64,000 nucleotides of DNA from a virus (taxonomy: Duplodnaviria > Caudoviricetes). The translations under genes and the position numbers were made by a program. Location: positions 32,001 to 96,000 of the IMG/VR virus record IMGVR_UViG_3300037507_003370, one strand, 5' to 3'. The notes beneath the pieces were generated by a model. The model made no database searches. It was not told the DNA's origin and saw only the letters and a program-made list of their open reading frames with translations. This document shows, piece by piece, positions 14,235 through 32,400 of the stretch (positions are counted from its first letter, which is position 1; every line of letters starts with the position of its first letter).

Positions 14235-14561
14235 ATGAAAAATGATGATATCTATGCAAATGTAGAGAAAAAAATACAAACAACAATGATAGGAGCTTTG
14301 GCAAAGTTTGAAGAAAATTTTGGTTATTTATGGGGAATAGATAAAAATGAGGACTTAACAGAGAAAGAGTTATATTTTAGTAACTTGTGGGAAAAAACGA
14401 GAGTTGCTATATTAAATAACGGTAATAATCAGTTAAGAAATGTACTAGCAGACCTTGACAAGTTTTTTCAACAGTCTTCGCCAAAGACTAAGTATCACTA
14501 TAAATTTTATATGAATTCAAATCAGAGAAACAACGAAGGAGACTATAGAAATGAAAACTAA
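14235..14561 (+). CDS. Hypothetical protein (108 aa)
   Basis: Clean ORF coupled to both neighbours within the tube-TMP interval. Confidence 0.55.
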   Translation: MKNDDIYANVEKKIQTTMIGALAKFEENFGYLWGIDKNEDLTEKELYFSNLWEKTRVAILNNGNNQLRNVLADLDKFFQQSSPKTKYHYKFYMNSNQRNNEGDYRNEN

Positions 14562-15459
14562 AACTTTCAAGATTACTGTTAATGAGAAAGATACAGAGCT
14601 AATGGTTCGTACTCCATCTATTAATGATCAAAGAGAGGCTCAAAAGGTTTATAATCAGGCTTTTACAGACGCTATTAAATCTAAATGTGTTGTTAGAGCA
14701 AAGATGGATGATCTATTAGAAGATCAAGGTTTATGGAATCAAGATAAACAGGCTAAGTTTGCTGAATTACAGCAGGAACTTCTTGAATCTGAAAGGCAGT
14801 TAGCTCGCGGAGGTATTCCATTGAGGCAAGCTAGAGAAGCTGCTATTAAAATGAGACAATACAGAGATGAAATTAGATCTCTAATAGCCGTTAAAACTTC
14901 TTTAGACAATCATAGCGCCGAAGGACAAGCAGACAATGCTCGTTTCAACTACTTGGTATCTGCTTGTGTGGTGTATAATAATGATAATAAGGATCCATAT
15001 TTTAAGAATATGGAGGACTATTTGAATAGGGCCAATGAGGAAGCAGCAGTACTTGGTGCTCAAAATTTAGCCGCAATGTTGTATGGTTTGGATAATGATT
15101 ACGAAAATAATTTACCAGAAAATAAGTTTTTAAAGAAATATAAATTTATTGATGATAAATTAAGATTTATTGATAAAAAGGGTAGATTAACAGATAATGA
15201 GGGTAGGCTTGTTGATGAAAACGGTAGGTTTATTGATGAGAGTGGTAACTTTGTTGACAAATTTGGAAACAGAGTGGACAAAGAGGGCGAATACATTGTA
15301 GAAACTAAACCATTTTTAGATGATGACGGAAATCCAGTAGTCCTAGATGAAGATAAAAAAGATGAACCAAAACCAGAAACCGTTACAGCAGAATCAGAGC
15401 CAGCACCAGTGCCACCAAAGATTCTTCCAAATACAGAAACTTCTTCAGAGACAGAGTAG
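14551..15459 (+). CDS. Probable tail assembly chaperone (302 aa)
   Basis: GAAGGA RBS; directly precedes the TMP. Contains short (F/L/V)(I/V/T)D(K/E/N)xG(R/N) repeats (FIDKKGRLTDNEGRLVDENGRFIDESGNFVDKFGNRVDKEG) and an acidic/Pro-rich tail. Confidence 0.55.
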   Translation: MKTKTFKITVNEKDTELMVRTPSINDQREAQKVYNQAFTDAIKSKCVVRAKMDDLLEDQGLWNQDKQAKFAELQQELLESERQLARGGIPLRQAREAAIKMRQYRDEIRSLIAVKTSLDNHSAEGQADNARFNYLVSACVVYNNDNKDPYFKNMEDYLNRANEEAAVLGAQNLAAMLYGLDNDYENNLPENKFLKKYKFIDDKLRFIDKKGRLTDNEGRLVDENGRFIDESGNFVDKFGNRVDKEGEYIVETKPFLDDDGNPVVLDEDKKDEPKPETVTAESEPAPVPPKILPNTETSSETE

Positions 15460-15540: not shown

Positions 15541-18500
15541 ATGGCAAGAGCTTTCAATCTTACTGCTGAATTAAACCTAAGAGGACCTTCTAATCTTAGG
15601 CCAGTTATTAATGATATTAGAAGACAGCTGGGTAATATCACAGCGAATGTTAATGTTCGTATTGATAGAAATGCACAAAGATCAATTGATACTGCAAATG
15701 CTTCTTTGCAAAGACTAAATACTACTCTAGCGGCAACTGCAGCAAATGCCGTTAGAGCAAATGCTAATATTAATACTTTAGCTGGAACAATTAATAATTT
15801 ACGTAATGCTCTTAATGGAGCTGGCAATGGTTTAAGAGATCTAACAACTAATGTGGGAGCGGCTGCTAGAGATGTTACTGCTGCCGCAAGAGCCACAAGA
15901 GCAGCAACTTCTGAGATGGAAGAATTCGGAAGACAAGCAGGACTAGCTGTTAGAAGATTTGCTGCATTTAGTGTTTCAACAAGTGTTATTTATGGATTAG
16001 TAAATGCTGTTACTAGCGCAACCAGAGAGTTTATAGACTTTGATAGACAATTAGTAAGATTAACACAGATCACTGGAGAATCATATAAAAGTTTAGGAAG
16101 AATAACCGATACTATTACTGATTTATCAACCAATCTTGGAGTTAGTTCATCTAGCTTGATCACAATAGCAGATACTCTTGCTCAAGCAGGACTTAGTGCT
16201 GGTGAAACAGAAAAGGCATTAAGAGCATTGGCTTTAACTGCTTTGGCTCCGTCGTTTGATGATCTTAATGAAACAGTGGAAGGTTCTATTGCTTTGATGA
16301 GACAGTTCGGTATTAGCGCTGGACAACTTCAATCTGCTTTGGGTTCTGTTAATTCTGTGGCCGCAGCATTTGCAGTCGAATCTAGTGATATTATTACTGC
16401 TATTCAGCGTACTGGTGGTGTGTTCGCTAGTGCAAGTAAAGGAGTTAGCGAAGGAACAGATGCTCTTAACGAATTCATTGCTGTATTTACTAGCGTAAGA
16501 GCAACAACTCGTGAAAGTGCCGAGACTATTGCAACAGGATTGAGAACAATTTTTACTAGAATTCAAAGAGAAGGAACCATAGAAGCACTAAAAGAATACG
16601 GAGTTAATCTACAAGATGTTGAGGGTAAATTCGTCGGAGCATACAAAGCTGTTCAATTACTTAGCGAAGGATTAAATAGTCTAGATCCAAGAGATGTAAA
16701 GTTTTCTAGAATAGTAGAAGAACTTGGTGGCTTTAGACAAATTGGTAAGGTTCTACCTCTTATTCAACAGTTTGGAACAGCACAACAGGCACTTGCTGTT
16801 GCTCAAAGAGGATCTTCTAGTTTAACTCTAGATGCTGTTAAGGCCCAACAGTCATTAGCTGTACAATTTACTAAAACCAGAGAAAACTTTGTTGCATTAA
16901 TTAGAGAGATTGGTCAAAGTAATAGTTTTCAGAATTTAGTTAAGCTTGGACTCACACTAACTAATGTTTTAATAAGACTCGCAGATGTTGCTCAGCCGTT
17001 ACTACCAATAATAACAGCGATAGCTGCTGTTAGAGGAGGAAGAGCATTAACCAACTTTATTGGTGGATTTATAGGAGGATTAAGGCCTGGTGTTGGTGGC
17101 GATGCTGGAGGTGGCGGTGGCGGAGGTGGTGCTGGCGGCGGAGGTGGTGGACGAGGAGGAAGAGGCGGCGGTGGTGGAGGAGGTGGCGGTAGAGACGATT
17201 TCCGTTCATCCTTGCAAGATGTAACAACTTCTTTAGATAGTTTACAGGGATCCATTGACCCCTTAACAAATGCTATACAAGCATTATCTACTAATAGTAT
17301 AGCCGGATTAGTCTCACAGATATCCGTATTGAATACTTCAGTAGTAGACCTTAACGCAACAATTGTATCCAGGCCAGGAGGAACAGGTTTTGCTAGAGGC
17401 GGACTTGTCCCTGGACAAGGAAATAGAGATACTGTACCAGCAATGTTAACCCCTGGCGAATTTGTTATTAGAAAAAAGGCTGTTGAGACACTAGGGGCAG
17501 ATCAATTATATGGAATGAATAAATATAGTAATGGTGGTAGTATTAGATCTGGTAATAGGCTCAGAAGACAAAGATTTGCTAAGGGTGGAAAGGCAGCTAA
17601 ATTAGCAAGTATAGATGGTGACTTTAGAGCTGTTGACGGAGATACATTCGACGCAACTGTTACGCCAACAGGAGATCAGTTTACGGCAAGATTTAGAGTT
17701 GCCGAATTTGATACGTATGAAACAAGAGGTAAATCGAGTTTAGTTTCTACGGACAGAGCAAAAAAGATAATGTCTCTAAATCCAAAAGAACCCCCTTTAC
17801 AAGAGTCTTCCGGTAGATATAAAGTTCCAAAAAATTATAGAGTAACTTCTAGAAATGAAACAGCAGCAACAGCAGCAGCAGAAGCAACAAAGCAATTACA
17901 AAGTAAACTTGATCAATTCGTAGGAACAGCAGCAGCCGATAAAACCGTTCCTGGTGGAGGTGGTGTTGGTAGATACTTAGCTAAAACTGGATTTTCTATA
18001 GATGACGAGTACACAACAGGAAGAAAGTGGGACGAAGATGGGAATGAATTAAATATCGGAGGTATTGTCAAAAAATTTGCTCTTGGAGGAAAAGTACGAA
18101 GAAATGTTGGCTATATTGATTATGACGTTATCGCTAATGAAGCAAATAAAAGCATTGTAGAAAAAGGAATGTCAGAGCTTGGAGTTACTGGACCTAGACT
18201 TTATACTGATGCTTTAACAAAATTAGCAGTATCTTCGCGAAAAGCTGGAGATTTAGATAAATTAAAAGCAATTTACGGTGTTGCTGGCAGTGGCAAAACA
18301 ACATTAGCAAGAGGTCAAGGCACAGATAAAGGATCTTTAAGAGAAACAACTCGTTTTCCAATATTAGGTCCCGATGATATTAAAAAGGCAAATGAAATAT
18401 TAATATTAAGTAGTAGTGTTTCTAAGTCTAAAATGGAAGATTTTTTTACTGAAGTTGATAGAGTTTACGCACTTAGTTCTTCAACAAAATCTGAGCAAGA

Positions 18501-21500
18501 AAAAGTAATGGCTCAGAGATTAGGTAGAGATATCAGCGGAATAGGATTAGAAGGAAGAGCACCAGGAACAACAGGATCTGCATCATCAGATACCACTGTT
18601 GGAGAAGCATTATTATCTCAATTAGGTAAAAAATCAGTTGTGTTAGGAAGAGGCGATTCTGGAAATCTAAGAAGAAAACAAGGACAAGAACTTGTAGAAG
18701 TTATAAAAAAGAAATTAGCATTTACTTGGGGAGGTTTCGCACCAACAACAGCTGGTCATGAAAGTATCATGGATGCTGCTGCAGCAATGGGTTTTGCTCC
18801 AGAAGACTTTATTGCTCTTGTTGGAGCTAATGAAGGAATTAAGGCAGGAGATCCTAGTAGTTATAGAACAGCAGTATTTGATCAAGATTTTAGAGTATTG
18901 CTAGCCAAGGCCGGGTTCGGAGCCAAGGGAGCCACCGTTCTGCCAAAACCAAGAGATTTTGAAGTTCCTCAAGGTTTTGATATATCCGAAGGCACAGGAA
19001 GACGCAAAGTAATATTGCCACAAAAAGGAAGTAGAGCATTTGTAGCAGACAAAACTCCAGAACAAATGGCAAAATACAAAGATGCTGGTTATGATGTTAC
19101 TAATTTAGAAAGAACTGGCGGAATTAGCGGTACAATGGTTCGTGACTTAATTATGTCCGGTAAGATCGACCAATTGCAAGACGTTTTATCTCCTGGTGTT
19201 TACGATATTATATCAAAAAATTTACCAATATTACAGAATAGAGCTAATGTTTTACCTGAAATTATTAAACAAGTACAAGCTTCACAACAATCATCGGTTG
19301 ATGCTGTAGAAAAACAAATAACCGACATAGGAATCAAAAGAATTAATCGCAAACAAGCGGAGAGCGATCCGGAGTATGCTGCTAAAATTGCCTTATTAGA
19401 AGAGTTAAGAAAGAAAAAAACTAAATTACAAAGCGCTGGAGCTTTTGAGCCATACAGACTTTTAGATAAATTAGCATCAGATCAACCAGATAAATACGGA
19501 TTAAAGTTTGCTCAGGGAGGATTGATACAAAAATTTATGGCAGGAGAGATGGTTCAAAAACTTCCTGCCCCAGCGAGAAAAATAATTGATGCTCTTGGAG
19601 GGTTAGAACCAGCAGCAAAAATAGGTGGCGTTCGATCAACAGAAATATTAGAGATTTTAAAGAAAAAAGTTGTTAATCAATCACAAAAAACAATACAAGA
19701 TAAAATCTTAGCTCAATATGCAGAAGTTATTGGAGCAGAGCAGCAGGCTATGGATCAAGCAATGAAATTTGGCTTGGTTGGATTATTTGGAGAAACTAAA
19801 GTTGGAACTAATGATCAGGGTAGAACAATTTATGACCCTAAGTGGGACTATAGTAAACAATTTGGCCCTGAAGATATAGGAGGAAGAAACACCACAATAA
19901 TAGCTAGAGGATTAAGATCTCAATATGCAGAAGCTGTATATCAAATGCAAAGAGAGATATTTGGAGTTAATGAAAATTTTGCTAGAAATTTGGAAACAGC
20001 AGGAGGATTTGGAGCACAATCACTAGCAAATATTCAAGGGCCAGCTGTAAAAGCAGGACAGGCTGGCATAGAAGGGGCAATGATAGAGTTAGTTCTAGCA
20101 AGACTCGGAGCCCCATTAAGAGAAAATGCTCCTGCAAATAGACCAATAGATTATCCAGATGGACTAGGAGATGCGGCTAAGTTTTTTGGTATAGATCCGG
20201 ATATGCCAACAGAAGTTAAAAGAACTATTAATGGAGATAGTTTAGCGAGAACAAGAGAAGAAATTGAAAGATATTATAAAGAAGTTTTACAAGTTTTTGC
20301 TACTGGTGGAAAAGTTAAACTTTATCATGGATCTAATACAGGAATAAATGATAGTGTTTTAAATAGTTTTAAAGAAAAGGGAGCTCTTTCTAATATTGCT
20401 AAAGGCTATGGTCAAGGAGAAGGATTCTACTTATATACAGAAAAGAATAAAGCACAACAACAAGCTAATATGAGAGTTAATGGAGGAAGCAACTTTACTG
20501 TTGCTCAAGGCGATAGGTCAGGAAAGCCTATGGTATTAACTTTTAATGAACAATTAAGCCCTAAAGATTATGATTTAGATTATGAATTGCAAAAAGGACT
20601 AGTAGTACAATGGATGCATGATAATTACGATACTCTTAAAGATAAATATGCTCCTACTGAAAATCAAACCGGATTAAAAGGTAAGTTTGATAAAAATCCA
20701 GACGCTGGAATGATGTCGGTTGGAGTAAGTATTCAAGAAGGATCTCAAACATTAAAGTCCGAAGACGGAACAGAGTTTACCTTGCCTGGAGGATCAAGAA
20801 AATCTATTTATGCCGGAAGTGGGGGAGATGTTAGAGAAGGAGCTTTGCTTGGGCAGCTTATGTCTAGAATTCAATCTGGAGACCCCGAATTAGTAAATTC
20901 TTTTGAATCCAAACTTTTTGAAAAACCACTAGGATTAGCATTAAAGTATGTTGGATCATCACCGCTCAAGCCGAGTAATATTGAAACTTTTGCAGACGGT
21001 GGGTCGGTAGAAGGTCAAAAAAAGGAGAAAAACTTTGGAAAAATTGGAATAAAAAATAATGGGTCCGAAATTATAGCAGCATATTTGGGCACAAAAGATC
21101 GTAGTGGTATGGTTAGTGCAAAAAAAATGGCAGATAACTTATATACTGTCGGTTTGTCTAAAGCTAGTGAAGGATATGGTCCTAAGCTTTATGATATTGT
21201 TATGGAAGCGGCCACAGCCAATGGTGGTATGTTAGCTCCTGATAGAAATATTGTTAGCGATGCTGCAAAAGGTGTTTGGTCATATTATTTTAATAATAGA
21301 TCAGATGTAAGAAAAACACCACTAGATAGAAATCAATGGACACAGAACTCTGCCTTAATTGATCCTAAATTATTAGGAGATAAAAATACATGGCCACCAT
21401 ATTCTGATCCTGCTTGGATATTACAAAGTGGATATAGTAAAAATTCAGAGCTATTAAATAGCTCAGATATTGTCAATTTAAATGATGATAAATATAAGTC

Positions 21501-24500
21501 ATTTTTACAAAGTCAACAATTATCATTTTTTGCTCAAGGAGGATCAGTAGAAGATACTGTACCAGCATTATTAACTCCTGGTGAATTTGTAATTAATAAA
21601 AAAGCAGCTCAAAAAATTGGATATGGCAAACTTAAAAAATTAAATCATGCGGATAAAATACAGGGTTATAATAGAGGAGGAATTGTACATAGGTTCGCTG
21701 ATGGCGATGTTGTCCCTCCGTCTGGCCCAGGCTCAGGTGGAGATTCTGATCCAACAATAAGAGACTTAATGGAACGAATTAGACAGTTATCAGAAGTAAT
21801 AGACAGACTTTCTGCTACTGTAAGAGATTCGTCAGATACCAGAGAAAGAACACCCGCAGAAAGACCAGAAAGAAGACCAAGGACTAGAGAAGAAATTTTA
21901 GATAGATATGGATCTAGAGTAATTAATAATAGTTTTAGATCTATGGATAGATTTACTACTAGACTTAATGTACTTACTGGTGTTGTTGGAGTCGCAGCAA
22001 ATTTCTTAGCAGAAACTATAGGAGAAAAGTCTGCAGTTGGTGCGGTTGTACAGAGTTTTGCAAATAGCATCACCACAGCATCTGGAACAGTGTATAGTGC
22101 TGCTGGAGCAATAAAAGGAGCATATGAAGTATTACCAGAAGGTGTTCAAGAACTAGTTAGACAACGTATTGGATCTTTTACTGCTGGTGGTGGATTTGGT
22201 ACAACCGGAGTTCAAGCCGCAGGAGGAGCAGCAGCAGGATTAGCTATAGCCGCTGCGACTATTTATGCTGGAATAGAAGCATTTAAGGCATATAATGATG
22301 CTATTAGAAAACAAACAGAAGAAATAGCCAAAAATAATATGACTCAAGGTTTGGAAGAATTTGATAAAGCTTTAGAATTATATACAAAAAATACAACAGA
22401 TAATGCTTTTGCGCTCAAAGTTGCTGGCGAACAATTAGCCAAAGCAACTAGTGCAGCATTAACAATAGTAAATCTTAATAAAACTAATCCAGACAGAGGA
22501 TATGCTAGTATTATTGGAGAAAATATTGGGACCGTAGGAGGAGGTCTTGTTGGTGGTGCTGTTGGAGGAGCAACTGCTGGTGCAACAATTGGAACAGTAA
22601 TATTTCCTGGTGTTGGTACAGTAATAGGGGCCCTATTAGGAACTGCGATTGGTGCTACTGCGGGCTATGCGTCAGATCAAGCCGTAGCATATTTCTCTGG
22701 TAGAGGCGGACAAGAGCAGATTTCTCAAAGATCAGAAATAGCAAATAGATTTGGGACAGGGGCCTATACTCAATCATTATTTGATTCTAATACACAAACC
22801 AATCTTTCTAGATCCTTAGCTTCTGTTCAGGCAGCAGAAACTGCAGCAACTCTAACTCCAGTTAGACAAAGACAAGATCAATATTTTGAACAATTATTTA
22901 AATCGGGCGTTTCGGAATCTGAAATTCAATCAGCTCCAGAATGGCAACAACAAGCAGAATTAATAGCCAGATCCAATGCTGCTACAGAAGAACAACTTAG
23001 ACTTATAGATGCAGACCTATCTGTTTCTAAAGAACTAAGAGATGCAAAAAAACAAGAAATTATTGCATCCACAGCTAGTGCAGAATTAAGAAAACAAGCA
23101 GAACAAGTTAGAATACAAAGAGAACAAGAAAGAGCAGCAGATGAAAGTAAATCATATATGGTTAGCTTGGAAAGAAGCTTTCAGAATATGGAACAGGCAA
23201 TGGACTCGACCTCTTACTCTATTGATAAATTAAGATCGTCTGCAGAATTATCAGCCGCAGCTTTACAGGGTCAGGCAAAAATTGGGAAAGTTACATTAGA
23301 TGCTATAGATGTAATCCGTAATCCTAATGTTGCCAGTAGACAAGAAAAAACACAAGCATATGGCTTAGCTGGTTCATTAATGGGATCTCAAGGCAAAAGC
23401 GTTACCGGATTACTTGAGTATGGATCAAATATAGAGGGTAGAATTTTATCGTCAATTAATAATGCTTTGGCTGAAAACTCTAAAGGATCATCTGAAAAAA
23501 TAGGAGCAGCTGTTAATAGGTCTGTTGCGAACGAAATAGAAGGATTAGATATTGGAGATTCATTAAAACAAAAATTAGCATCGCAAACTTCTGCCGCAGT
23601 TTCCAAAATGAGGACAGATGGTGATGAAAAGATTGATTTTGATGACTTGGCAGATAAAGTACCAGGATTAGCAAAAGTTGTTGATGCAACTAAAAGAGCC
23701 CAAGAAATGGCTGTTAAAAGACTGGAGTTTTTCCAGCAGTCACTTAATGAATACTCAGAGTCTATAAATAGTCTTGCAGAACTACAATATAATATTGGAG
23801 AAAGATTAAGAAGAGTTAATAACTTAAGAATCAAGTCTGAGGAAGATCTATCAAGAGCACTTGGAAAATCAACCAGTTTTGAAGCTACCAAGTCTAATGT
23901 TAGATCAAATGTTCAGTCTTTAGCAGGAACAACTGACCCAAGACAAATATTCGAAAATTTAGCAAATTTAGAACAGCAAAGACAGCAGCAACAATCAAGA
24001 GTAACTTCTGCTGCTAACAGAGGAGCAGTTCAAGAATATGTAGTAATGACTAATCAATTAAAGACTACTACATTACAAATGAGAGAGAATCACGCTGCTT
24101 TAAAAGAATTAGCTGAAAGTAGCGATGTTGCATCAGCAGCATTGAATAAAATAAATGATATACAACAACAGAATGCTGCTAGAACTAATATCTTAGAAAG
24201 ATATGTAACATCAACACCACAAGAACAAAATCAACTCTCTTCTGCTTTTGAAAGACTACAAAATAATATGGATGGCGCCACAAATAGCATGTGGGATTCT
24301 GTAAATGTTCAGAAAGCATATAGAGACTCACTAACAAGCGGTTCTACCCAAGCAGAAGCAATGAATAAGGCCCAAGAGGCTGCTGCACAAGATCGTAAAG
24401 AGACCTTAGATGCATTTAATATGATAGCTCCATTACTAGGAGATCAACAAAATGAATTAAAGGCTAATGTATTAGAAAGTATGATGAGAGAATCTGGTGT

Positions 24501-27500
24501 TCAAATGTCTCCATTATTTGAAAAGGCTCTTCAAGGATTAAGAAATCCAGAAAGAGATCCTCAAATGGATGCTGCTATTAAAGAATATCAAGAAGCCAAT
24601 AGGCTACAACAAGAAGCCAATGTATATCTTGCTATGTTAGATGGAAAAGTAGCACAAGACATGGCAACAAAATCAGACGAATTATTAAGAACATCATTAG
24701 CAACAGTAACTCAAAAATTCGAATTAGCAGAAAGTAGTGATGTAAAAAATAAAATTAATAGTATAGACAGTAGACTTAGAGATGGAATTAAAGTATTTCC
24801 TCAAGGTAATATTGGTGGTGGTTCTTCTGATGATGTAACCACAGCAGCTAAAGGTGGATACATAACATATAAGGCTGTTGGAGGCTCAATATTTAAGCCC
24901 AAAGGTACCGATACTGTGCCTGCCATGTTAACTCCTGGAGAATTTGTTGTTAACAGATCAGCAACTCAAAAGCATGGTTCATTATTAGAGTCTATTAATA
25001 GTGGACAATTTGCCAAAGGAGGAAAAGTAACATATCGAGCAGCTGGTGGTATTGTTGGAGACGTAAAATCACCGCATCTTAAAGATTTTAGCGATCCTTA
25101 TGAGGACTTGAGAGGACAACCATTAACAGGATCTTTCTTCTCTAAGCTAGGATCTAGTGATGATGTTGCTAAAAATTTATTGGATTTAGAACAAGGCTTT
25201 GGAGCTTTACAAGGATACCAAGCATCAGCCTATCCTACTTTTAATAACTCTGGTTCAACAGCAGACGGTCTTGATAAACAGTCAACAACAAAATGGATTA
25301 AAGATAATAGATCTCCAACCGGAGGTAAACTAGGTTGGTTTCCTGATCTAACTGTTTTTCACGGATCCGCAGGCAATTTAGGCTATTTACCAATATTCTG
25401 GGGTGCAAATGCTATTGCTGGTGCAACTGGAGCCACCGTTACAGCCAATCGTAAATCATTACAAAAACAGATGGTTACCAAGGATCTATTAGATTTAGGA
25501 AATCCAGATATTTTTGATGTTTTAAATGACAGATCAGCAAGCGGAAAAGGACCTAGAGCAAGAACAACTCTTTTATCAGAAGACCAAGCTAAATTACAGA
25601 AAGAAAAACTAACATCGATTTTTGATCAGGTTGACAAAGGATTGTCTGATGTTAAACAAAAAGAAATTAATTTATCAAAAGACGGCGGCGCCATAAATTC
25701 TGCAGCAAATATTGGTCAATATGGCGCAAGTTTTAGAAAATATGGACTCATATTAGGATCTTCAATACCAGATAAATATATGGGTCTTAGTTTTAATAAA
25801 CCAAACACTTCTATAGACCAATCTTTAGTAGGAGGAAATTTATCTGAGCCATCTTTTAGCGTTACTAAATATGGCTATGCGACATCTTCTACATCTCCAT
25901 TGGCAAATTCAACTAATACAGCAGTAATATCTGGGGGTATTCAAACAATACCAACAGAAGATCAGCTTAAGTCTTTTACCGATAAATATAAATCAGTTAT
26001 ACAAGTAGAAGAATGGAGAGCTTATATAGATAAACTAGATAAAGATAAGTCAAGAAGCACTACTCCTATAGAAGAACAAACTAACGCTAGAAATAAAGCC
26101 TTAAGAAAATTAATTAATAATCAAATAACACATATCCAACTCAAAGAAGAAGATTTGAGCGATGAATTTAAAAAGATGGCTGGCATAGATGGAGATTTTG
26201 AAAAATTAGATGTATATTCAGAAGCTTTTAAAGGTAGATGGCCTAATACAGAGTCTATGAAAACTAATTTTGGAATTAAAGATGAAGACCTTAAAAAATA
26301 TTGGCAAACTGGAGCAAATGATAAATTATTTACATTACAATATAGCAAAAAATTAAGAAATCTTTTAACCGGAGCAGAATTTGATCAACAGTATACTAAA
26401 GGATTGCCTTGGTCTTGGGGAGAAAATAGCATATTCACAGCAGAAACTATGGAAGCAGTTAAAAAAGAAATGGCATTATCTTCAGGGGCCTCTTCTTTTA
26501 AAGTCATTCCTAAAGTATTTAGTAAATCATATACAGACACAAGAGATCCTAATCAATATACAGCAAAAATCAAATTCCCATATGACTCATTATCATCTCT
26601 TTTATTTGATAAAGATAGTATGGACTATACCGCTCAATCACTTACTGCATTAGTTCCATGGTGGGAAAATCAACAAAAAATAGATCCTTTTAGTATTAAT
26701 CCATTTGTCGGCTTGGCTCAGCCTAACGCTGTGATTCCAGCGTATCAGGACGAAAAAAGTATGGAAAAATTTGTTAAATATTGGGTTGAAAAAGAAATTT
26801 TCAACAAACCATCCATTTATCTGCCTCTTTCGCCTATAAAACTACCTACAGCACTAGATAAATTTGTTGGAAGTGTTAATAATACAACACAATTCGATAG
26901 AGAAGTAACAGATAGTGAAGGAGGTAAGAATTTTGAACAAGGTAATTATGTTCCAGAGAATGCGGAAGTTGCTGATATATCTAATGCTTTATTTAAAAAA
27001 TATGAATATATATACGCAAAAAGATCTCAAGATACAAGCGCTAATAATGAATCAAAATTAAGGGAAAACTTATTACAATATAATTTAGCATCTAGTCTTG
27101 GTAAATCACTCTTAAAGAAAGATGGATTAAAATTACCATTATGGGATCCTGATCAAGCTTTTGTAACAGCAGATCCAGTTTGGCAAGCAGTTAAAGACAC
27201 GGCTCCAGACCTTGGAGTAGATGGATATAGGAACGCTGCCGAATGGAAAAGAAGCTATATATTAGCTGCCGCCGGAACAATAGCAGATCCGCCAGATAAG
27301 ATCAAAGCAGACGAGGACATTTTTCCTGCTCAAAATTATATAGCTTGGATTAGAGCAAAAACCGTAGAAGCCTATTCTGCAAATGAAGAGAGTCAGGATA
27401 AATATAAACAATCAGGAGGAGTAAATATATCTTCTTTGGGTAAGTTAGTTTCTGCTTGGAGATTTATGGAAGAGTCTAGAACAGCTGGAGGAAGCGCAAC

Positions 27501-29487
27501 ATCATATAAGGACGATAATAGTCCTAAAGATAATCCTTTTTCTAAACGCCTATATAATAGATATGAAAAAGATCTAAAGAAATTTACTAAAAAAGTTACT
27601 TTACAAGCACCAGACAGAAACAAAAAAGGAGATAAGCCATGGGAAAGAGACTATGATGACACTGGAGCTGGATTAGAAAGAACATATTGGGACAATGCTA
27701 AATTAGCTTCTGATGCCGGATTTGTTCAAACTGTTTTATCAGAACAAGAAGGTAAAATAGATGATAGAAGAGCAAGAACTCTTTTAAGTTATCGTAGAGG
27801 ATATAAAAAAGATTCGGTACAACCAGAAGAACAAGCAATTTTAGATGCTTATGGTACAATGGTAGACAAAAAAGGAAGAGAAGACATAGCATTTGATCTT
27901 ACAACAGGAGGAGCTAACGAAGCTAAAGCGCCAACAACTTTTACTGGTCCTGGCGGCGTTTATGAACAAATGATGGATCAATATCAAGTTATGCAAATTG
28001 GCAGACGTTCTATGCTAAGAGCATTAATAGAAGATAGAGCAAGATCCAATTTTGATGCTCCAAATTTTGAAAATTCTGGATACGAAGAGTGGTGGGAAGA
28101 TATGTCAAATGATCTCGAATATATTGAAGAATATTTATCTGCTAGAGATTATATGTTATTGAAAGCAACCTCTTCTGCAGAATTGTATAATCCTGCTGTT
28201 GGAGCAGCAGTACAAGCGAAAATAAGTCAAGTGTCTGGAGGTTTACCAGACTTTTTATTAAATGCTATGCCAGGACTAACAGGAGGAGCAGACTATAATT
28301 CGTTATATGGAACAGTCGTAGACAACATGGCTCTTTCGGCGCAAGAGTTTGTAGATTCTATAACTGGCCCAAGACCAGTTGATCCGAGTAACCCAACACT
28401 TGGAACACTAACAGATGATCAAGCTCAGAGAGTTAATGAGCTTAGAAAATTAATAGCTACAGAATTTGGCCAAACAAGAGATATAAAACCAAGCGTTTAT
28501 ACTCAAGAAATTTTTGATATGTATAAAACATACATTGAAGACAATTATAATAATGCTAATAAAGCATATAGCAAATTAAATGAAGGAACTATGTTGCAAC
28601 CTCCCAATGAGATTTGGGATCGTAGCGATTTAGTTGTTCTAGCAGACAAAGCTTCGGCTAATAGTCCAAATACTTTTAGAGCATTTTATTTAGCTTCTGT
28701 TGGTGCTGGTAAAAACTTAGCAGAACTTAAAAAAGACGAGATGCAGGGATTTGGAGGACTATTACCTAGTGCTCAAAAGGGTGCCGAAGCATTAGGAATG
28801 TCCTCTGCCGAACCAGATAAAAAGAGCCAACCTCAAACCAGAGCTTCTGGAGGATTGATATATAATCAAAGTTACAAGCCGAATAATATTGATTGGTCAG
28901 CAAAAGGCACAGACACTGTTCCTGCAATGTTAACACCAGGAGAATTTGTAATTAACAAAGATTCTAGTCAAAGATACATGCCTATTTTAGAAGCTATTAA
29001 TCAAGGAAACTATACTCAGGGCAATATTGTTCAGTATGCTAGCAGAGGAGGAACAATAAGACCAATATACAGAAACATGGGTGGTATTGTAGGAGGAAAC
29101 CAACAGCAAGGTGTATTAAATTCATATATTGGATTGGATGAAAAATCTATAGCAGCTTTAAGGGACTTTACGGCCAAATTTGATCAATTTGCTAAACAGC
29201 TTTTGGAACTTAGACTACCAACTATTGGAATTGATAGCACTAGCTTGGGAGCATTAACTACATTTAGTAATAGGTTTGATGAATTTAGCAAGAGTTTGCT
29301 CAAATTGAATATACCGCCGGTGATTACGATAAACGCAAAACATGATGTTAACGTCAATATTAATGGAGCTAGTGTGTTTAACAATCTCAATGCCTATGTT
29401 AGCGATATAGTAAAGAGCGAAATTGATAAAGCATTTAGTCAATTAGCTAAGGTTTCCGAAAATGCTATTAATTTGTATGGGTCATAA
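15541..29487 (+). CDS. Giant tape measure protein with embedded enzyme-like domains (4648 aa)
   Basis: N-terminal TP901-type TMP core (FDRQLVRLTQITG...LAQAG...SAFAVES.DI...). Long Ala/Gln-rich helical regions, glycine-zipper hydrophobic segments and four DTVPA(M/L)LTPGEFV motifs. Canonical position after tube and chaperones. Confidence 0.9.
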   Translation: MARAFNLTAELNLRGPSNLRPVINDIRRQLGNITANVNVRIDRNAQRSIDTANASLQRLNTTLAATAANAVRANANINTLAGTINNLRNALNGAGNGLRDLTTNVGAAARDVTAAARATRAATSEMEEFGRQAGLAVRRFAAFSVSTSVIYGLVNAVTSATREFIDFDRQLVRLTQITGESYKSLGRITDTITDLSTNLGVSSSSLITIADTLAQAGLSAGETEKALRALALTALAPSFDDLNETVEGSIALMRQFGISAGQLQSALGSVNSVAAAFAVESSDIITAIQRTGGVFASASKGVSEGTDALNEFIAVFTSVRATTRESAETIATGLRTIFTRIQREGTIEALKEYGVNLQDVEGKFVGAYKAVQLLSEGLNSLDPRDVKFSRIVEELGGFRQIGKVLPLIQQFGTAQQALAVAQRGSSSLTLDAVKAQQSLAVQFTKTRENFVALIREIGQSNSFQNLVKLGLTLTNVLIRLADVAQPLLPIITAIAAVRGGRALTNFIGGFIGGLRPGVGGDAGGGGGGGGAGGGGGGRGGRGGGGGGGGGRDDFRSSLQDVTTSLDSLQGSIDPLTNAIQALSTNSIAGLVSQISVLNTSVVDLNATIVSRPGGTGFARGGLVPGQGNRDTVPAMLTPGEFVIRKKAVETLGADQLYGMNKYSNGGSIRSGNRLRRQRFAKGGKAAKLASIDGDFRAVDGDTFDATVTPTGDQFTARFRVAEFDTYETRGKSSLVSTDRAKKIMSLNPKEPPLQESSGRYKVPKNYRVTSRNETAATAAAEATKQLQSKLDQFVGTAAADKTVPGGGGVGRYLAKTGFSIDDEYTTGRKWDEDGNELNIGGIVKKFALGGKVRRNVGYIDYDVIANEANKSIVEKGMSELGVTGPRLYTDALTKLAVSSRKAGDLDKLKAIYGVAGSGKTTLARGQGTDKGSLRETTRFPILGPDDIKKANEILILSSSVSKSKMEDFFTEVDRVYALSSSTKSEQEKVMAQRLGRDISGIGLEGRAPGTTGSASSDTTVGEALLSQLGKKSVVLGRGDSGNLRRKQGQELVEVIKKKLAFTWGGFAPTTAGHESIMDAAAAMGFAPEDFIALVGANEGIKAGDPSSYRTAVFDQDFRVLLAKAGFGAKGATVLPKPRDFEVPQGFDISEGTGRRKVILPQKGSRAFVADKTPEQMAKYKDAGYDVTNLERTGGISGTMVRDLIMSGKIDQLQDVLSPGVYDIISKNLPILQNRANVLPEIIKQVQASQQSSVDAVEKQITDIGIKRINRKQAESDPEYAAKIALLEELRKKKTKLQSAGAFEPYRLLDKLASDQPDKYGLKFAQGGLIQKFMAGEMVQKLPAPARKIIDALGGLEPAAKIGGVRSTEILEILKKKVVNQSQKTIQDKILAQYAEVIGAEQQAMDQAMKFGLVGLFGETKVGTNDQGRTIYDPKWDYSKQFGPEDIGGRNTTIIARGLRSQYAEAVYQMQREIFGVNENFARNLETAGGFGAQSLANIQGPAVKAGQAGIEGAMIELVLARLGAPLRENAPANRPIDYPDGLGDAAKFFGIDPDMPTEVKRTINGDSLARTREEIERYYKEVLQVFATGGKVKLYHGSNTGINDSVLNSFKEKGALSNIAKGYGQGEGFYLYTEKNKAQQQANMRVNGGSNFTVAQGDRSGKPMVLTFNEQLSPKDYDLDYELQKGLVVQWMHDNYDTLKDKYAPTENQTGLKGKFDKNPDAGMMSVGVSIQEGSQTLKSEDGTEFTLPGGSRKSIYAGSGGDVREGALLGQLMSRIQSGDPELVNSFESKLFEKPLGLALKYVGSSPLKPSNIETFADGGSVEGQKKEKNFGKIGIKNNGSEIIAAYLGTKDRSGMVSAKKMADNLYTVGLSKASEGYGPKLYDIVMEAATANGGMLAPDRNIVSDAAKGVWSYYFNNRSDVRKTPLDRNQWTQNSALIDPKLLGDKNTWPPYSDPAWILQSGYSKNSELLNSSDIVNLNDDKYKSFLQSQQLSFFAQGGSVEDTVPALLTPGEFVINKKAAQKIGYGKLKKLNHADKIQGYNRGGIVHRFADGDVVPPSGPGSGGDSDPTIRDLMERIRQLSEVIDRLSATVRDSSDTRERTPAERPERRPRTREEILDRYGSRVINNSFRSMDRFTTRLNVLTGVVGVAANFLAETIGEKSAVGAVVQSFANSITTASGTVYSAAGAIKGAYEVLPEGVQELVRQRIGSFTAGGGFGTTGVQAAGGAAAGLAIAAATIYAGIEAFKAYNDAIRKQTEEIAKNNMTQGLEEFDKALELYTKNTTDNAFALKVAGEQLAKATSAALTIVNLNKTNPDRGYASIIGENIGTVGGGLVGGAVGGATAGATIGTVIFPGVGTVIGALLGTAIGATAGYASDQAVAYFSGRGGQEQISQRSEIANRFGTGAYTQSLFDSNTQTNLSRSLASVQAAETAATLTPVRQRQDQYFEQLFKSGVSESEIQSAPEWQQQAELIARSNAATEEQLRLIDADLSVSKELRDAKKQEIIASTASAELRKQAEQVRIQREQERAADESKSYMVSLERSFQNMEQAMDSTSYSIDKLRSSAELSAAALQGQAKIGKVTLDAIDVIRNPNVASRQEKTQAYGLAGSLMGSQGKSVTGLLEYGSNIEGRILSSINNALAENSKGSSEKIGAAVNRSVANEIEGLDIGDSLKQKLASQTSAAVSKMRTDGDEKIDFDDLADKVPGLAKVVDATKRAQEMAVKRLEFFQQSLNEYSESINSLAELQYNIGERLRRVNNLRIKSEEDLSRALGKSTSFEATKSNVRSNVQSLAGTTDPRQIFENLANLEQQRQQQQSRVTSAANRGAVQEYVVMTNQLKTTTLQMRENHAALKELAESSDVASAALNKINDIQQQNAARTNILERYVTSTPQEQNQLSSAFERLQNNMDGATNSMWDSVNVQKAYRDSLTSGSTQAEAMNKAQEAAAQDRKETLDAFNMIAPLLGDQQNELKANVLESMMRESGVQMSPLFEKALQGLRNPERDPQMDAAIKEYQEANRLQQEANVYLAMLDGKVAQDMATKSDELLRTSLATVTQKFELAESSDVKNKINSIDSRLRDGIKVFPQGNIGGGSSDDVTTAAKGGYITYKAVGGSIFKPKGTDTVPAMLTPGEFVVNRSATQKHGSLLESINSGQFAKGGKVTYRAAGGIVGDVKSPHLKDFSDPYEDLRGQPLTGSFFSKLGSSDDVAKNLLDLEQGFGALQGYQASAYPTFNNSGSTADGLDKQSTTKWIKDNRSPTGGKLGWFPDLTVFHGSAGNLGYLPIFWGANAIAGATGATVTANRKSLQKQMVTKDLLDLGNPDIFDVLNDRSASGKGPRARTTLLSEDQAKLQKEKLTSIFDQVDKGLSDVKQKEINLSKDGGAINSAANIGQYGASFRKYGLILGSSIPDKYMGLSFNKPNTSIDQSLVGGNLSEPSFSVTKYGYATSSTSPLANSTNTAVISGGIQTIPTEDQLKSFTDKYKSVIQVEEWRAYIDKLDKDKSRSTTPIEEQTNARNKALRKLINNQITHIQLKEEDLSDEFKKMAGIDGDFEKLDVYSEAFKGRWPNTESMKTNFGIKDEDLKKYWQTGANDKLFTLQYSKKLRNLLTGAEFDQQYTKGLPWSWGENSIFTAETMEAVKKEMALSSGASSFKVIPKVFSKSYTDTRDPNQYTAKIKFPYDSLSSLLFDKDSMDYTAQSLTALVPWWENQQKIDPFSINPFVGLAQPNAVIPAYQDEKSMEKFVKYWVEKEIFNKPSIYLPLSPIKLPTALDKFVGSVNNTTQFDREVTDSEGGKNFEQGNYVPENAEVADISNALFKKYEYIYAKRSQDTSANNESKLRENLLQYNLASSLGKSLLKKDGLKLPLWDPDQAFVTADPVWQAVKDTAPDLGVDGYRNAAEWKRSYILAAAGTIADPPDKIKADEDIFPAQNYIAWIRAKTVEAYSANEESQDKYKQSGGVNISSLGKLVSAWRFMEESRTAGGSATSYKDDNSPKDNPFSKRLYNRYEKDLKKFTKKVTLQAPDRNKKGDKPWERDYDDTGAGLERTYWDNAKLASDAGFVQTVLSEQEGKIDDRRARTLLSYRRGYKKDSVQPEEQAILDAYGTMVDKKGREDIAFDLTTGGANEAKAPTTFTGPGGVYEQMMDQYQVMQIGRRSMLRALIEDRARSNFDAPNFENSGYEEWWEDMSNDLEYIEEYLSARDYMLLKATSSAELYNPAVGAAVQAKISQVSGGLPDFLLNAMPGLTGGADYNSLYGTVVDNMALSAQEFVDSITGPRPVDPSNPTLGTLTDDQAQRVNELRKLIATEFGQTRDIKPSVYTQEIFDMYKTYIEDNYNNANKAYSKLNEGTMLQPPNEIWDRSDLVVLADKASANSPNTFRAFYLASVGAGKNLAELKKDEMQGFGGLLPSAQKGAEALGMSSAEPDKKSQPQTRASGGLIYNQSYKPNNIDWSAKGTDTVPAMLTPGEFVINKDSSQRYMPILEAINQGNYTQGNIVQYASRGGTIRPIYRNMGGIVGGNQQQGVLNSYIGLDEKSIAALRDFTAKFDQFAKQLLELRLPTIGIDSTSLGALTTFSNRFDEFSKSLLKLNIPPVITINAKHDVNVNINGASVFNNLNAYVSDIVKSEIDKAFSQLAKVSENAINLYGS
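17089..17190 (+). repeat. Poly-glycine hinge in TMP
   Basis: GVGGDAGGGGGGGGAGGGGGGRGGRGGGGGGGGG, encoded with mixed GGN codons. Confidence 0.9.
17590..18048 (+). other. Staphylococcal nuclease (thermonuclease)-like domain within TMP
   Basis: VDGDT (17632-17646), R-x4-D-x2-E (RVAEFDTYE, 17695-17721) and GRYLA (17968-17982). Confidence 0.7.
18091..18700 (+). other. P-loop NTPase/kinase-like domain within TMP
   Basis: AIYGVAGSGKTT Walker A (18277-18303) after a hydrophobic strand. Confidence 0.7.
18700..19260 (+). other. HIGH-superfamily nucleotidyltransferase (cytidylyltransferase/NMNAT-like) domain within TMP
   Basis: AFTWGGFAPTTAGH (18718-18759; G-x-F-x-P-x-T/H-x-G-H) and ISGTMVRDLI..G......LSPGVYDII (from 19123), matching the C-terminal ISST.IR motif. 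Confidence 0.75.
20040..20280 (+). other. PD-(D/E)xK nuclease-like domain within TMP
   Basis: Helix with E (GAMIE, E at 20086), PIDY (D at 20149) and TEVKRT (EVK at 20212-20220). Confidence 0.5.
20311..20985 (+). other. ADP-ribosyltransferase-like (H-Y class) domain within TMP
   Basis: KLYHGS (LYHGS at 20320-20334) and YGQGEGFYLYT..KA (GEGFYLYT at 20416-20439). Confidence 0.6.
21004..21525 (+). other. GNAT acetyltransferase-like domain within TMP
   Basis: LYTVGLSKASEGYGPKLYD (motif A-like GYG, 21172-21195) then LAPDR.IVSDAAKGVW. Confidence 0.5.
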
Positions 29488-29492
29488 TAACT

Positions 29493-32400
29493 ATGTATAT
29501 AAAATATTATGATAATGTAGGAGAATTAGGTTCTGTAGCATTAACTAGCAATGTATTGACAACGATCAATCTTCCTAATGGAGAATTTGTTTCTATAGGA
29601 ACAGACTATCGCCCATTTTTTAATTATGTACAACCTGGCGATTTGTTTTATGTTAAAGCATCTCAAACATCAGCATTTACTATATGTCTTGGTAAATATA
29701 ATATAGATGGATTTAATAATAGATCTATAGAAGTATTGCACATAATATCTTCTTATGGTACTTTAAACCCATCTGTAAATACGGAGATTACTATAGAAAA
29801 CAGTAATTCTCTATCAAATAGAATAGCCAGTAATGCTGTTTTTCTTAAAAATATAAATAATTTTGTTCCAGAACTTTTAACATCAGACTATGTAATTTCA
29901 TTAAGCGGTAATATGAATGTTACGCTACCGCCAGCAACTATAAACAATATAAACTTAAAATATGGATTTTTACTAGCAAACAAAAATAATACCACAGATA
30001 ATCTAGTTATATCAGCATCTGGATCAAATAACATATTAACTAAATCTGGTACCTCTAATAGTGTTAGCGTTACTGGTGTTGGAAGTTATGTAGAACTTAT
30101 AGCTGGCTCTGGTGGAACTTGGTATAAACTATTTAGTAATGAAGAAATGTCTGGAGGTGGTTCTAGTCTTGGTATGCCGGTAAAGTCATTACAATACAAC
30201 AATAATAATTCTCAAGCTGGAGCAAAGGCTTATTGGGATGATACATTTAAAACTTTATACTTTGGTGAAACAAATAATGTTACTAATGCCGATGTTGTAA
30301 TAAGCGCTACACAAAATAAGACATCTGGCATATATCCATTTTTACTAAAGCTTAATAATGGAAATTATTTTGCTCTCACAAAAGAAGGAAAAGTAGGGAT
30401 AAACACACCTAGTCTACCTTTGTATGAATCTTCTCCTAATTTTCATGTTGTGGGAAGATGTGCTGTATTCGAAGGTATATGCGGGGCTGGTGGCGTTGCA
30501 CTAACGCTATATAATAATCCAGAAGTAGTTCCGCAATCAGGTAGTTTGGCTGGTACAGTAAATCTATCAGCAAGAAATAGCAATAGAAATGTAGTAAACT
30601 TTGCGCAAGTACAATCAAAAATTCTAAATCCAATCAAAGGACAAACACAAGGACAATTTTTAGTCAATGTGGATGTTTCTGGAGTACCTAAGAATTTACT
30701 AAAACTAGACAATAGTAATGTTGTACTAGGTTCGAATGAAGTAGATTCATCTGCTAATTCTATAGTGCTAGGCAAAAATAATAATACTGATAATCTCAAA
30801 AATTCTGCTATAGTCGGAAACGATAATAGCATTGCAAATGCAAATAATGTATTTGTATTAGGTTCTGGAAATAGTATAGATTTTATAAAAAATAGTGTGA
30901 AATTTGTTCTTTCTGAACCAAATGTTGGAAGTTTCAGCGGTTTGGATTGGGCAGATCTTGATGGTATGGTTTCTGGCGATATTGTTGAAGTAACTAATAA
31001 TGGTTTAAATAATGGCTACTACATAGCTTCAGATAGTATTTGGACTCCATTAGATAATTCCACAGCAATAGCCTATCTTGGAACTTCTAATCTATTAGTT
31101 GGCACAGACAATACTCTCTCTGGAAATAATCTCGTTGTATTTGGAAACAACACTAATGTTAGTGGTAACAATTTAAGCGTATTTGGTAGCTTTAATAATA
31201 TAAGAACCCAAAATATACAAAACATAATTCTGCCAAATAATACATTATTTAATAATGTTACTGTTATTGGAGAGTATAACGACATTGCTTCAAGCGGACT
31301 AATAATTCTAGGAAATCAAAATTCTGCTAGTGGCGTAAACGGAATGCTTCTTGTTGGATCAGAAAACATTTCTACAAGCGGATCTATTAATAGCATCATT
31401 ATTGGAGATAACAATAATTTAATTACTATTTCCGGTATCTCTATAGGAAATAATAATAGTGGAACTCTAATATCTTCAAGTCTTTTTGGTATAAATAACT
31501 CTATTGCACTATCTAATTCTTATCTTTTAGGAAATAATAATAGAGCAACTGGAGTATTAAATAATATTATAGGCTCATCAAACTCTATTGTTTTAAGCTC
31601 TGGTAATATTGTAGGAACTAATAATGTAGCACAAGGTAATTCCATAAATGCATTAGGAAACAATATTAATATATCAGGAGCAAATAATATTTCTGTTGGA
31701 AGCAATGTTAGAGCAACAGGTAATAATAATATTTTAATTGGAAATAATAATACTAATATAGATTTAATAAATAATACAACAATATTATCTAATAATTTTA
31801 ATCATTCTGGTTCAATATCTTCATCTTTTATTTTATCAAACAATGTTTCTATATCTAGTGGAGTTTATACAGATCTAAACATTTTAGGAACCAATAATAC
31901 AGTTAATTCAGGAATAGCAAATGTATTAATTTTAGGAGATAACAATAATTTAAACAATGTTTTTGATCTTACTTGGCCTTCTTTAGCATTTGTCTCTAAT
32001 AATCCTGGCACACAATTTACCAGAATCAATTCTACGCTTCAAGAATTAGAATATTATAAAAATAATGATATTATAGATATTTCTGGAGAAACTCAGTCAG
32101 CATCTGGAATTATTAAACTTGTTTACTTCAATCAAGATACCTCGACATTAACCATAGAGACAGTTTCTGCTATACCGGGAATATCAACAGCAAATATTAA
32201 ATCTAGAACACAGCAAGAAAAATTGATAGAATTTGGGTCCAAACCAATACAAATTATTGGAAATAAAAATACCGCAATTGGAATATCCGGGATCAATCTT
32301 GGATCATCTAACTATTCCAGTGGAAATAGAATTTTCATTCATGGTAATGATAACGAAGTTTTTGGAAATGATATCATTAGCATTGGAAATGGGATATATG

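Follow-up and report, generated by a model that had tools for sequence, protein, structure and literature searches.

The 64,000-nucleotide stretch of phage DNA analyzed here, referred to as the window (positions 32,001 to 96,000 of IMG/VR virus record IMGVR_UViG_3300037507_003370; Duplodnaviria, Caudoviricetes), encodes a giant tape measure protein (TMP) in which, with high probability, an array of separate cassettes is set into a conserved TMP scaffold. Several of these cassettes have the sequence motifs or the predicted fold of enzymes, and the array is a candidate for cargo delivered through the phage tail. The gene (15541..29487, on the plus strand, as are all features of the gene given below) is a single open frame of 4,648 residues and has no cysteine codon. 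By its family matches it is a phage tape measure protein, as an earlier, sequence-only reading of the window had held: PF10145 (phage minor tail or TP901-type tape measure) matches residues 190 to 384 with an E value of 9.8e-24 and 84.8 bits, against a cut-off of 33.2, and many TMP families of the PHROG collection match the first 616 residues, the best with an E value of 7.7e-28 and seven with E < 1e-15.

Modules, junctions, and changing cargo

A database search with residues 680 to 2000 as the query returned 94 proteins, so there are at least 94 metagenomic giant TMPs of this kind; together with the window protein they make up the family set of 95 proteins used throughout. The window protein contains four copies of a module, DTVPA(M/L)LTPGEFV, at residues 630, 2005, 3124, and 4458, and the cassette array lies between the first two. 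Module 1 (residues 617 to 683; 17389..17589) comprises FARGG, DTVPAMLTPGEFV, YSNGG, and FAKGG, and module 2 (residues 1997 to 2060; 21529..21720) comprises FAQGG, DTVPALLTPGEFV, YNRGG, and FADGD. The sequence-only reading had described FAxGG-type pentapeptides that open and close each domain, and these sites were all found: at residues 617 (FARGG, nucleotide 17389) and 679 (FAKGG) in module 1; at residues 839 and 846, where LNIGG-IVKK precedes the junction FALGG (18076..18090); at residues 1323 and 1332, in the tandem junction FAQGG-LIQK-FMAGE (19507..19548); at residue 1586 (FATGG; 20296..20310); at residue 1817 (FADGG; 20989..21003); and at residue 1997 (FAQGG), where module 2 begins. They delimit the five segments that had been proposed, here called S1 to S5, and cutting all of the proteins at the motif independently recovered the same five.

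The motif is strongly enriched. F[AS]xGG was observed 8 times, compared with an expectation of 0.22 ± 0.49 and a maximum of 4 in 1,000 shuffles of the protein. Over the 95 family proteins, the junctions follow the consensus GG-h-[IV]-x-[KR]-[FYL]-A-x-G-G-x-V and often occur in tandem as two 9-residue units. Cassette ends defined by BLAST fall within 12 residues of the strict motif for 17 of 21 starts of S1 and 26 of 30 ends of S4, against a background of 2.7%. The enriched motif thus coincides with domain boundaries, in agreement with the proposal that this region is a row of separate domains rather than helical tape. As DNA, the four module copies are 68 to 78% identical and the junctions approximately 74 to 83% identical over 23 nucleotides; identities this low indicate that the motifs are kept at the protein level by selection on the peptide and are not recent DNA copies.

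Exact copies of DTVPAMLTPGEFV number 186 among the 95 family proteins, and when modules were counted by regular expression, 83 of the proteins had 2 to 7 and the other 12 had one or none. Module 1 also matches 16 PHROG families, 12 of which are annotated as TMPs, with several of the matches close to the end of the profile, and the module is present in the presumed TMP of cyanomyophage S-SM2, which adjoins the baseplate hub gp26. The module is therefore an element of TMPs in general, present here in multiplied form. A homotrimer model of module 1 (residues 606 to 700, three copies) had a score of 0.01 and a pLDDT of 35 and weighs neither way. Inteins were considered and dropped, as the TMP has neither cysteine nor a Ser/Thr splice-junction pattern; internal translation starts were dropped as well, as the cassette starts have no consistent methionine.

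The sequence-only reading had proposed in advance that homologous TMPs be collected and examined for a conserved scaffold with varying cargo, and this is the pattern that was obtained. The 94 relatives are 3,075 to 7,724 residues long, nearly all have PF10145, and they reside on contigs of up to 241 kb. The N-terminal TMP scaffold (residues 1 to 520; 15541..17100), which contains the PF10145 and TMP PHROG matches, is present in 87 of the 94 at approximately 59% identity, residues 2501 to 3115 are common to 80, and overall 80 to 94 of the relatives keep each component of the scaffold, namely the N-terminal part, the middle region, and the modules. The distribution of the cassettes is patchy: S1 is present in 21 relatives, S2 in 84, S3 in 36, S4 in 32, and S5 in 47. 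Adjacent cassettes are linked by 5 to 16 residues; elsewhere the gaps are 100 to 1,000 residues and increase in domain-sized steps, which indicates that other cassettes are inserted there. The cassettes are largely collinear; the few inversions are in P0061, P0063, P0069, and P0068. Sequence identity is mosaic; in P0049, P0050, and P0053, for example, S4 is 92 to 93% identical, the nucleotidyltransferase part of S2 26 to 28%, and the N terminus 58%.

When the 95 proteins were cut at the motif, the segments formed 218 clusters, 135 of which are singletons. In 140 cassette representatives, the only Pfam families found at an E value of ≤1e-4 were EF-hands, an exotoxin-type ADP-ribosyltransferase (ART; PF03496), SNase (PF00565), and the DnaJ J-domain, and approximately 135 of the representatives have no enzyme annotation. 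The J-domain lies at about residues 2690 to 2760 of P0071 and has the HPD motif, P0014 has a Pfam-significant SNase at residues 678 to 841, and P0077 and P0032/P0052 are further relatives in the group that carries the exotoxin-type ART and EF-hand cassettes.

The absence of cysteine extends to the whole protein, with 0 of 4,648 residues, cassettes included. Neighboring open reading frames (ORFs) mostly contain 0.3 to 6% cysteine, although three short ones also have none. Within the family, 82 of the 95 TMPs have no cysteine and the maximum is 0.11%; against a background of approximately 1%, the absence is far beyond chance. Avoidance of cysteine would suit a chain that is kept unfolded, threads through a narrow channel, and crosses an oxidizing compartment, although this is circumstantial. 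One neighboring ORF (49455-50693, 412 residues) stands in sharp contrast to the TMP, with 25 cysteines (6%).

Identities of the five cassettes

Neither the region as a whole nor S1, S3, S4, or S5 obtained a usable match when the PDB was searched with sequences and profiles. S3 and S4 were judged partly from AlphaFold2 models, for which each was folded as a single domain; a joint MAFFT alignment of S3, S4, and S5 misplaced fragments.

S4 (residues 1591 to 1816; 20311..20988) is confirmed as an ART fold by its predicted structure. The alignment-based model has a pLDDT of 83.8 and a pTM of 0.73. Among AFDB clusters, its best match is an unnamed, full-length relative of 206 residues (E value of 7e-12; TM scores of 0.66/0.71), followed by RES, DUF3990, PARP, and ART-PolyVal entries; matches in BFVD and the Atlas agree with an ART, and nearly all of the best structural matches are ARTs. 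The assignment came from VIA-align and the AFDB, BFVD, and Atlas libraries, as Foldseek returned no significant match to the S4 model in the PDB. In 28 sequences, H1596-G-[ST], G-F-Y1630, E1670, and E1682 are invariant or nearly so. These residues are PARP-like (L-Y-H-G-S, G-x-G-F-Y, and D-Y-E), and the H-Y-E triad was assigned by this resemblance rather than by residue-level superposition. DUF3990 matches the window's own S4 with 13.7 bits, against a cut-off of 32.2, and 18 of the 28 members weakly. The fold recovered and the invariant signature both agree with the ART named by the sequence-only reading, and the active site is apparently intact.

S2 (residues 851 to 1322; 18091..19506) had been read as a P-loop domain followed by a HIGH-type nucleotidyltransferase, and this reading is upheld by motifs and profile matches. 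A Walker A motif running from G913 to K919 (G-V-A-G-S-G-K-T-T), P1068-x-T1070-x-G-H1073, and S1196-x-T1198-x-x-R1201 are invariant in 58 sequences, the (T/H)xGH and following motifs occurring in the strings G-G-F-A-P-T-T-A-G-H and I-S-G-T-x-V-R. PF16581 matches 55 of the 58 members (best E value of 6.3e-6) and PF01467 matches 28; the window's own S2 has 19.9 bits to PF16581, against a cut-off of 26.7. The S2 profile matched MJ0951 in the PDB (E value of 0.0011), a NadR-like NMN adenylyltransferase (NMNAT; 0.012), a NaMN adenylyltransferase, and several phosphopantetheine adenylyltransferases (PPATs). These results support a P-loop NTPase fused to a nucleotidyltransferase of the PPAT/NMNAT type. 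That the P-loop part is kinase-like is unproven, and a chemistry of the NAD or CoA type would be a guess. Searches for stand-alone homologs of S2 yielded only TMP fragments on short contigs.

S1 (residues 684 to 845; 17590..18075) is probably the SNase that had been proposed. The catalytic and calcium-binding SNase pattern of V-D-G-D-T, F-R, D-x-Y-E, and R is recognizable, and D699-G-D701, R719, D724, E727, and R811 are invariant in 19 sequences. S1 matches the endonuclease family phrog_452 with an E value of 0.008, and an Atlas search gave an SNase lead (0.89). P0014 has a true SNase cassette in the same slot (PF00565; E value of 4.7e-9), and hhalign aligned S1 with it on the catalytic motif, with an E value of 0.0028 and a probability of only 11%. 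The invariant motif and this alignment favor the assignment; on the other side, the window's own S1 had no match in Pfam or PDB profile searches, and we therefore grade the SNase as probable.

S5 (residues 1822 to 1996; 21004..21528), a possible GNAT-like domain, has 28 invariant columns, including G-Y-G-P at residues 1878 to 1881. An Atlas search based on a protein language model returned viral hypothetical proteins of about 190 residues (0.95) and GNAT clusters (0.93 and 0.91), and GNAT similarity is a lead only, this search being its sole source. No consistent Pfam or PDB match and no stand-alone homolog of S5 were found, the searches for the latter returning TMP fragments on short contigs only; Acetyltransf_16 weakly matches 2 of 38 members, and the window's own copy has no Pfam match.

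S3 (residues 1337 to 1585; 19549..20295) appears to combine two parts, and its AlphaFold2 model is mostly helical, with a pLDDT of 66. Fold searches found a weak but consistent resemblance of the first 60 to 70 residues to the XRE/Cro helix-turn-helix. The C-terminal domain, of about 100 residues, was found in 220 cluster representatives by a profile search of 1.84 billion proteins. Its carriers (P0098 to P0220 among them) are nearly all 1,400 to 7,900 residues long, many with 2 to 4 copies of the domain, which is usually followed by a G-Y-A-x-G-G junction; none of the 220 is clearly a stand-alone domain. An alignment of 46 diverse members leaves just three invariant residues, G1512, E1516, and D1537, along with one nearly invariant arginine. 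The domain has no match in Pfam or the PDB, and an Atlas feature search with S3 was empty. Judged by this distribution in sequence databases, the C-terminal part of S3 is an undescribed, TMP-specific domain.

The sequence-only reading had taken S3 for a PD-(D/E)xK nuclease, and this assignment was rejected as unsupported. The lysine of the motif is a threonine in several of the 46 members, and no nuclease fold was found among the VIA, Foldseek PDB, or AFDB matches, although the poor quality of the model makes the missing fold weak negative evidence. The predominantly helical model and the confinement of the domain to giant TMP-like proteins likewise lend the nuclease no support. For the cassettes more generally, an objection raised beforehand, that their active sites might be degenerate, was checked, and the active-site residues were found to be invariant.

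Remaining regions and genomic setting

The remainder of the TMP comprises further scaffold and a second region that is not tape. A Gly/Arg-rich tract of about 31 residues, read directly in the sequence (residues 523 to 553; 17107..17199), lies just before module 1; a tract of this kind is found in only 1 of the 95 family proteins. The middle scaffold (residues 2061 to 3115; 21721..24885) contains glycine-zipper-like hydrophobic segments and a stretch rich in helix formers. Hydropathy peaks of the TMP membrane-segment type are located at residues 140 to 158 and 476 to 498, in the N-terminal scaffold, and at residues 2142 to 2160, 2223 to 2248, and 2336 to 2376, and helix formers, counted from composition, make up 45 to 48% of the scaffold parts. 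Between module 3 (residues 3116 to 3175; 24886..25065) and module 4 with the C terminus (residues 4441 to 4648; 28861..29487) lies the second non-tape region (residues 3176 to 4440, about 1,265 residues; 25066..28860), with 10% aromatic residues. It has no internal FAxGG junction and no family match in Pfam and PHROG scans, and no more than 2 database proteins match its first half, P0002, the window's own copy, being one of them.

The source is an uncultured freshwater phage. At least 17 lake-water metagenome runs contain half or more of the words sampled from the window, and P0002, from a JGI contig, is a partial copy of the TMP with 100% identity. In L001, a related contig of 84 kb, the gene order is identical, with small ORFs preceding the giant gene and three large ORFs following it. 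A collection of cultured phages contained no close relative of the phage and nothing related to the cassettes or the S3 C-terminal domain, and its cyanophage proteins match the module only.

Upstream of the TMP gene are a tail-fiber-like ORF (2-1609; phrog_9942, E value of 1e-24) and an ORF with collagen-like or tail-fiber repeats (7853-8446). The ORF at 8452-9432, among the structural genes, is of the RgpF-like (rhamnan synthesis) glycosyltransferase type (PF05045; E value of 1.5e-18), and glycosyltransferase genes follow the tail genes of L001. Two overlapping ORFs, 14235-14561 (108 residues) and 14551-15459 (302 residues), lie directly upstream of the TMP gene, the usual site of the tail chaperone pair; the longer, read in the +1 frame, has an ATG of its own. 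The immediate neighbors of the TMP had no match in the family scans. Downstream are giant ORFs at 29493-36899 (2,468 residues), 37612-45045 (2,477 residues), 45059-49444 (1,461 residues), and 50751-59624 (2,957 residues). In scans of the first three, family matches were nearly absent, the one match being a PHROG of unknown function in 37612-45045.

Proposed tail delivery, competing explanations, and significance

We give the whole proposal, that the cassette array consists of tail-delivered enzymes, a probability of roughly 0.5. The tail lumen contains a few copies of the TMP, which exit before the DNA. In the mechanism that we propose, the array would be the tail-borne counterpart of head-packaged polyvalent proteins. 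The cargo would enter the virion as an integral stretch of the TMP, in an unfolded or loosely folded state; it is probably stored in an extended form, since folded domains of 20 to 50 kDa in three copies would hardly fit a lumen of approximately 4 nm. It would exit the tail ahead of the DNA, like TMPs generally, and at least the NAD+- and NTP-dependent enzymes would arrive in the cytoplasm, regain their folds, and, early in infection, act on targets of the host or its defenses. NAD+ and ATP are found only in the cytoplasm, and the need of the ART, the P-loop domain, and the nucleotidyltransferase for NAD+ or NTPs points to this compartment as the destination. A J-domain requires DnaK, and the J-domain cassette of the relative would fit DnaK-assisted refolding. 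The junctions and modules may be hinges, register or hand-off elements, sites that touch a chaperone or the tube, and possibly processing sites.

Polyvalent proteins (Iyer et al. 2017, PMC5512222) are the nearest known parallel in content: like the TMP array, they place many unrelated enzymatic domains (ART, GNAT, nucleases, and enzymes of nucleotide metabolism) in one polypeptide, are encoded among late or virion genes, vary in domain make-up, and are predicted to be delivered with the DNA. They are characterized by at least two disparate activities in a virion protein, and the ART fold, the nucleotidyltransferase with its P-loop domain, and the SNase-like cassette would give the TMP such a combination. 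ART-PolyVal-like entries are among the weak, non-significant structural matches to S4. The polyvalent proteins described to date are tied to modules of the MuF, portal, relaxase, or N4 virion RNA polymerase type, often together with a zincin peptidase, and packaging in the head is presumed for them (PMC5512222); tape measure proteins do not come up in that paper, in which the word "tape" has 0 occurrences. None of MuF, portal, virion RNA polymerase, relaxase, or a zincin-like peptidase was present in the Pfam matches of the window's TMP (P0001) or of the 140 cassette representatives at an E value of ≤1e-4. The array thus differs from polyvalent proteins in its carrier, which is a TMP, in the specific junction motif that sets off the domains, and in that a peptidase was not found.

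Muralytic domains reportedly occur within TMPs, as the Rpf-like motif of mycobacteriophage TM4 and the peptidase of T5 pb2. These too are extra functional domains inside a TMP that act on TMP ejection, but they are one or two cell-wall hydrolase motifs acting in the periplasm, in contrast to at least five cytoplasm-type cassettes here and more than 200 segment clusters in the family. Tme (PMC11126660) and Sle1 (PMC13277306), from contractile injection systems (CIS), resemble the array in that a TMP-like protein inside a tail-like tube has an exchangeable functional domain that differs between relatives; in Tme, this domain is an endonuclease (PMC11126660). They belong to bacterial CIS clusters, however, and have a single C-terminal domain, with no FAxGG junctions or repeated DTVPAMLTPGEFV modules reported. 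The window and the related contigs are phage-like rather than CIS clusters: they are IMG/VR viral contigs, the window has tail-fiber ORFs, and L001 encodes a cement or minor capsid gene. T4 Alt is a virion-borne ART that acts on host proteins at the start of infection (PMC5512222), but it is a separate head protein of another ART clade, whereas S4 is internal to the TMP and nearest to DUF3990, PARP, and Tpt1-like folds. Literature searches, confined to open-access papers and preprints, found neither multi-cassette TMPs nor the junction or the module described.

The cassettes might instead be a polyprotein made for the producer cell, with the late, highly expressed TMP gene as its vehicle; cleavage at the GG junctions or modules, no later than tail assembly, would release them to act in that cell, and they would never be packaged. 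The cytoplasm of the producer would suit the NAD+- and NTP-dependent enzymes and the J-domain, each junction is a short, conserved stretch containing Gly-Gly, and C-terminal trimming of the TMP during tail assembly is known for lambda gpH and T5 pb2. We nevertheless consider this explanation unlikely: Pfam identified no protease among the 140 cassette representatives, enzymes remaining in the cytoplasm would have little evident reason for protein-wide avoidance of cysteine, take-over or anti-defense functions would be ill-timed if expressed late, and the cargo sits between scaffold parts, so that its excision would cut the tape into pieces. In another alternative, the domains are parts of the tail, either as bead-like spacers or plugs of a very long tail or as binders of DNA, the tube, or a chaperone, with their enzyme ancestry now irrelevant. 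This role would account for the presence of S2 in 84 of 94 relatives, for the many representatives that lack enzyme annotation, and for the occurrence of the module in TMPs at large; in addition, the searches located S2 and the S3 C-terminal domain nowhere but in TMPs. It is improbable, however, given catalytic signatures that stay invariant over 19 to 58 sequences diverged to 30 to 40% identity, the exotoxin-type ART and J-domain of relatives, and a free gain and loss of cassettes between close scaffolds that is ill-suited to parts that set tail length.

A closer variant of delivery holds that the cargo leaves together with the TMP yet has its site of action in the periplasm or at the membrane, for example as a nuclease on extracellular or periplasmic DNA or in the modification of envelope proteins, and does not enter the cytoplasm. 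The muralytic motifs known from TMPs act there, SNase is calcium-dependent and relatives have EF-hand cassettes, and a cysteine-free protein suits an oxidizing periplasm. The ART, the P-loop domain, and the nucleotidyltransferase, by contrast, need NAD+ or NTPs, which the periplasm lacks, and the J-domain cassette needs cytoplasmic DnaK, so there is only a small chance that this variant is correct. As the sequence is of metagenomic origin, the giant ORF might also be a chimeric assembly or a fusion of neighboring genes. This is scarcely credible for one uninterrupted frame with an identical copy on another contig, detection in the lake metagenomes, and 94 relatives of like architecture; the copy and the metagenome runs argue directly against an assembly artifact.

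Several points weigh against cytoplasmic delivery. We infer the presence of the cargo in the virion, its exit from the tail, and its entry into the cytoplasm, and do so for an uncultured phage. TMP extra domains with a known action work in the periplasm or on the cell wall, and cassettes of the SNase and EF-hand types point to a calcium-rich environment other than the cytoplasm. Two domains restricted to TMPs in our searches, S2 and the C-terminal part of S3, may serve the tail and not be effectors. The window's own copies of S1, S2, S4, and S5 are all below the curated cut-offs of Pfam, and two of the five enzyme identities first proposed did not hold, the GNAT being unconfirmed and the PD-(D/E)xK nuclease unsupported. 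The cassette frequencies are biased by the seeding of the relative set with residues 680 to 2000. On balance, the array that the sequence-only reading described is real and extends beyond this one protein, the enzyme assignments are right in part, and tail delivery of the cassettes is plausible.

A more specific version of tail delivery is advanced tentatively, as somewhat doubtful. In it, the tail lumen of widespread large phages of freshwater and other environments would be a programmable injector, in which as many as a dozen unfolded cassettes, all on a single TMP chain without cysteine, are threaded into the host ahead of the DNA. The DTVPAMLTPGEFV modules and h-A-x-G-G junctions would be register, hand-off, or processing signals that permit cassette exchange without disturbing tail assembly, and the ART and the kinase-nucleotidyltransferase pair would be immediate anti-defense or take-over enzymes.

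Even without delivery, cysteine-free TMPs, a 13-residue module that is nearly invariant in 2 to 7 copies, and a TMP-specific domain in approximately 220 protein clusters offer new entry points into TMP biology. If the cargo is delivered, the TMP would be a second route, besides the capsid, for ready-made phage enzymes, one that is modular and has a recognizable junction grammar. The hundreds of unannotated cassettes, represented by the 218 segment clusters with their few Pfam matches, would then be candidate anti-defense or take-over activities, and the length of some TMPs, far greater than their tails seem to need, would be explained. Phage tails might also be loaded with foreign proteins by using such TMPs as a natural scaffold.

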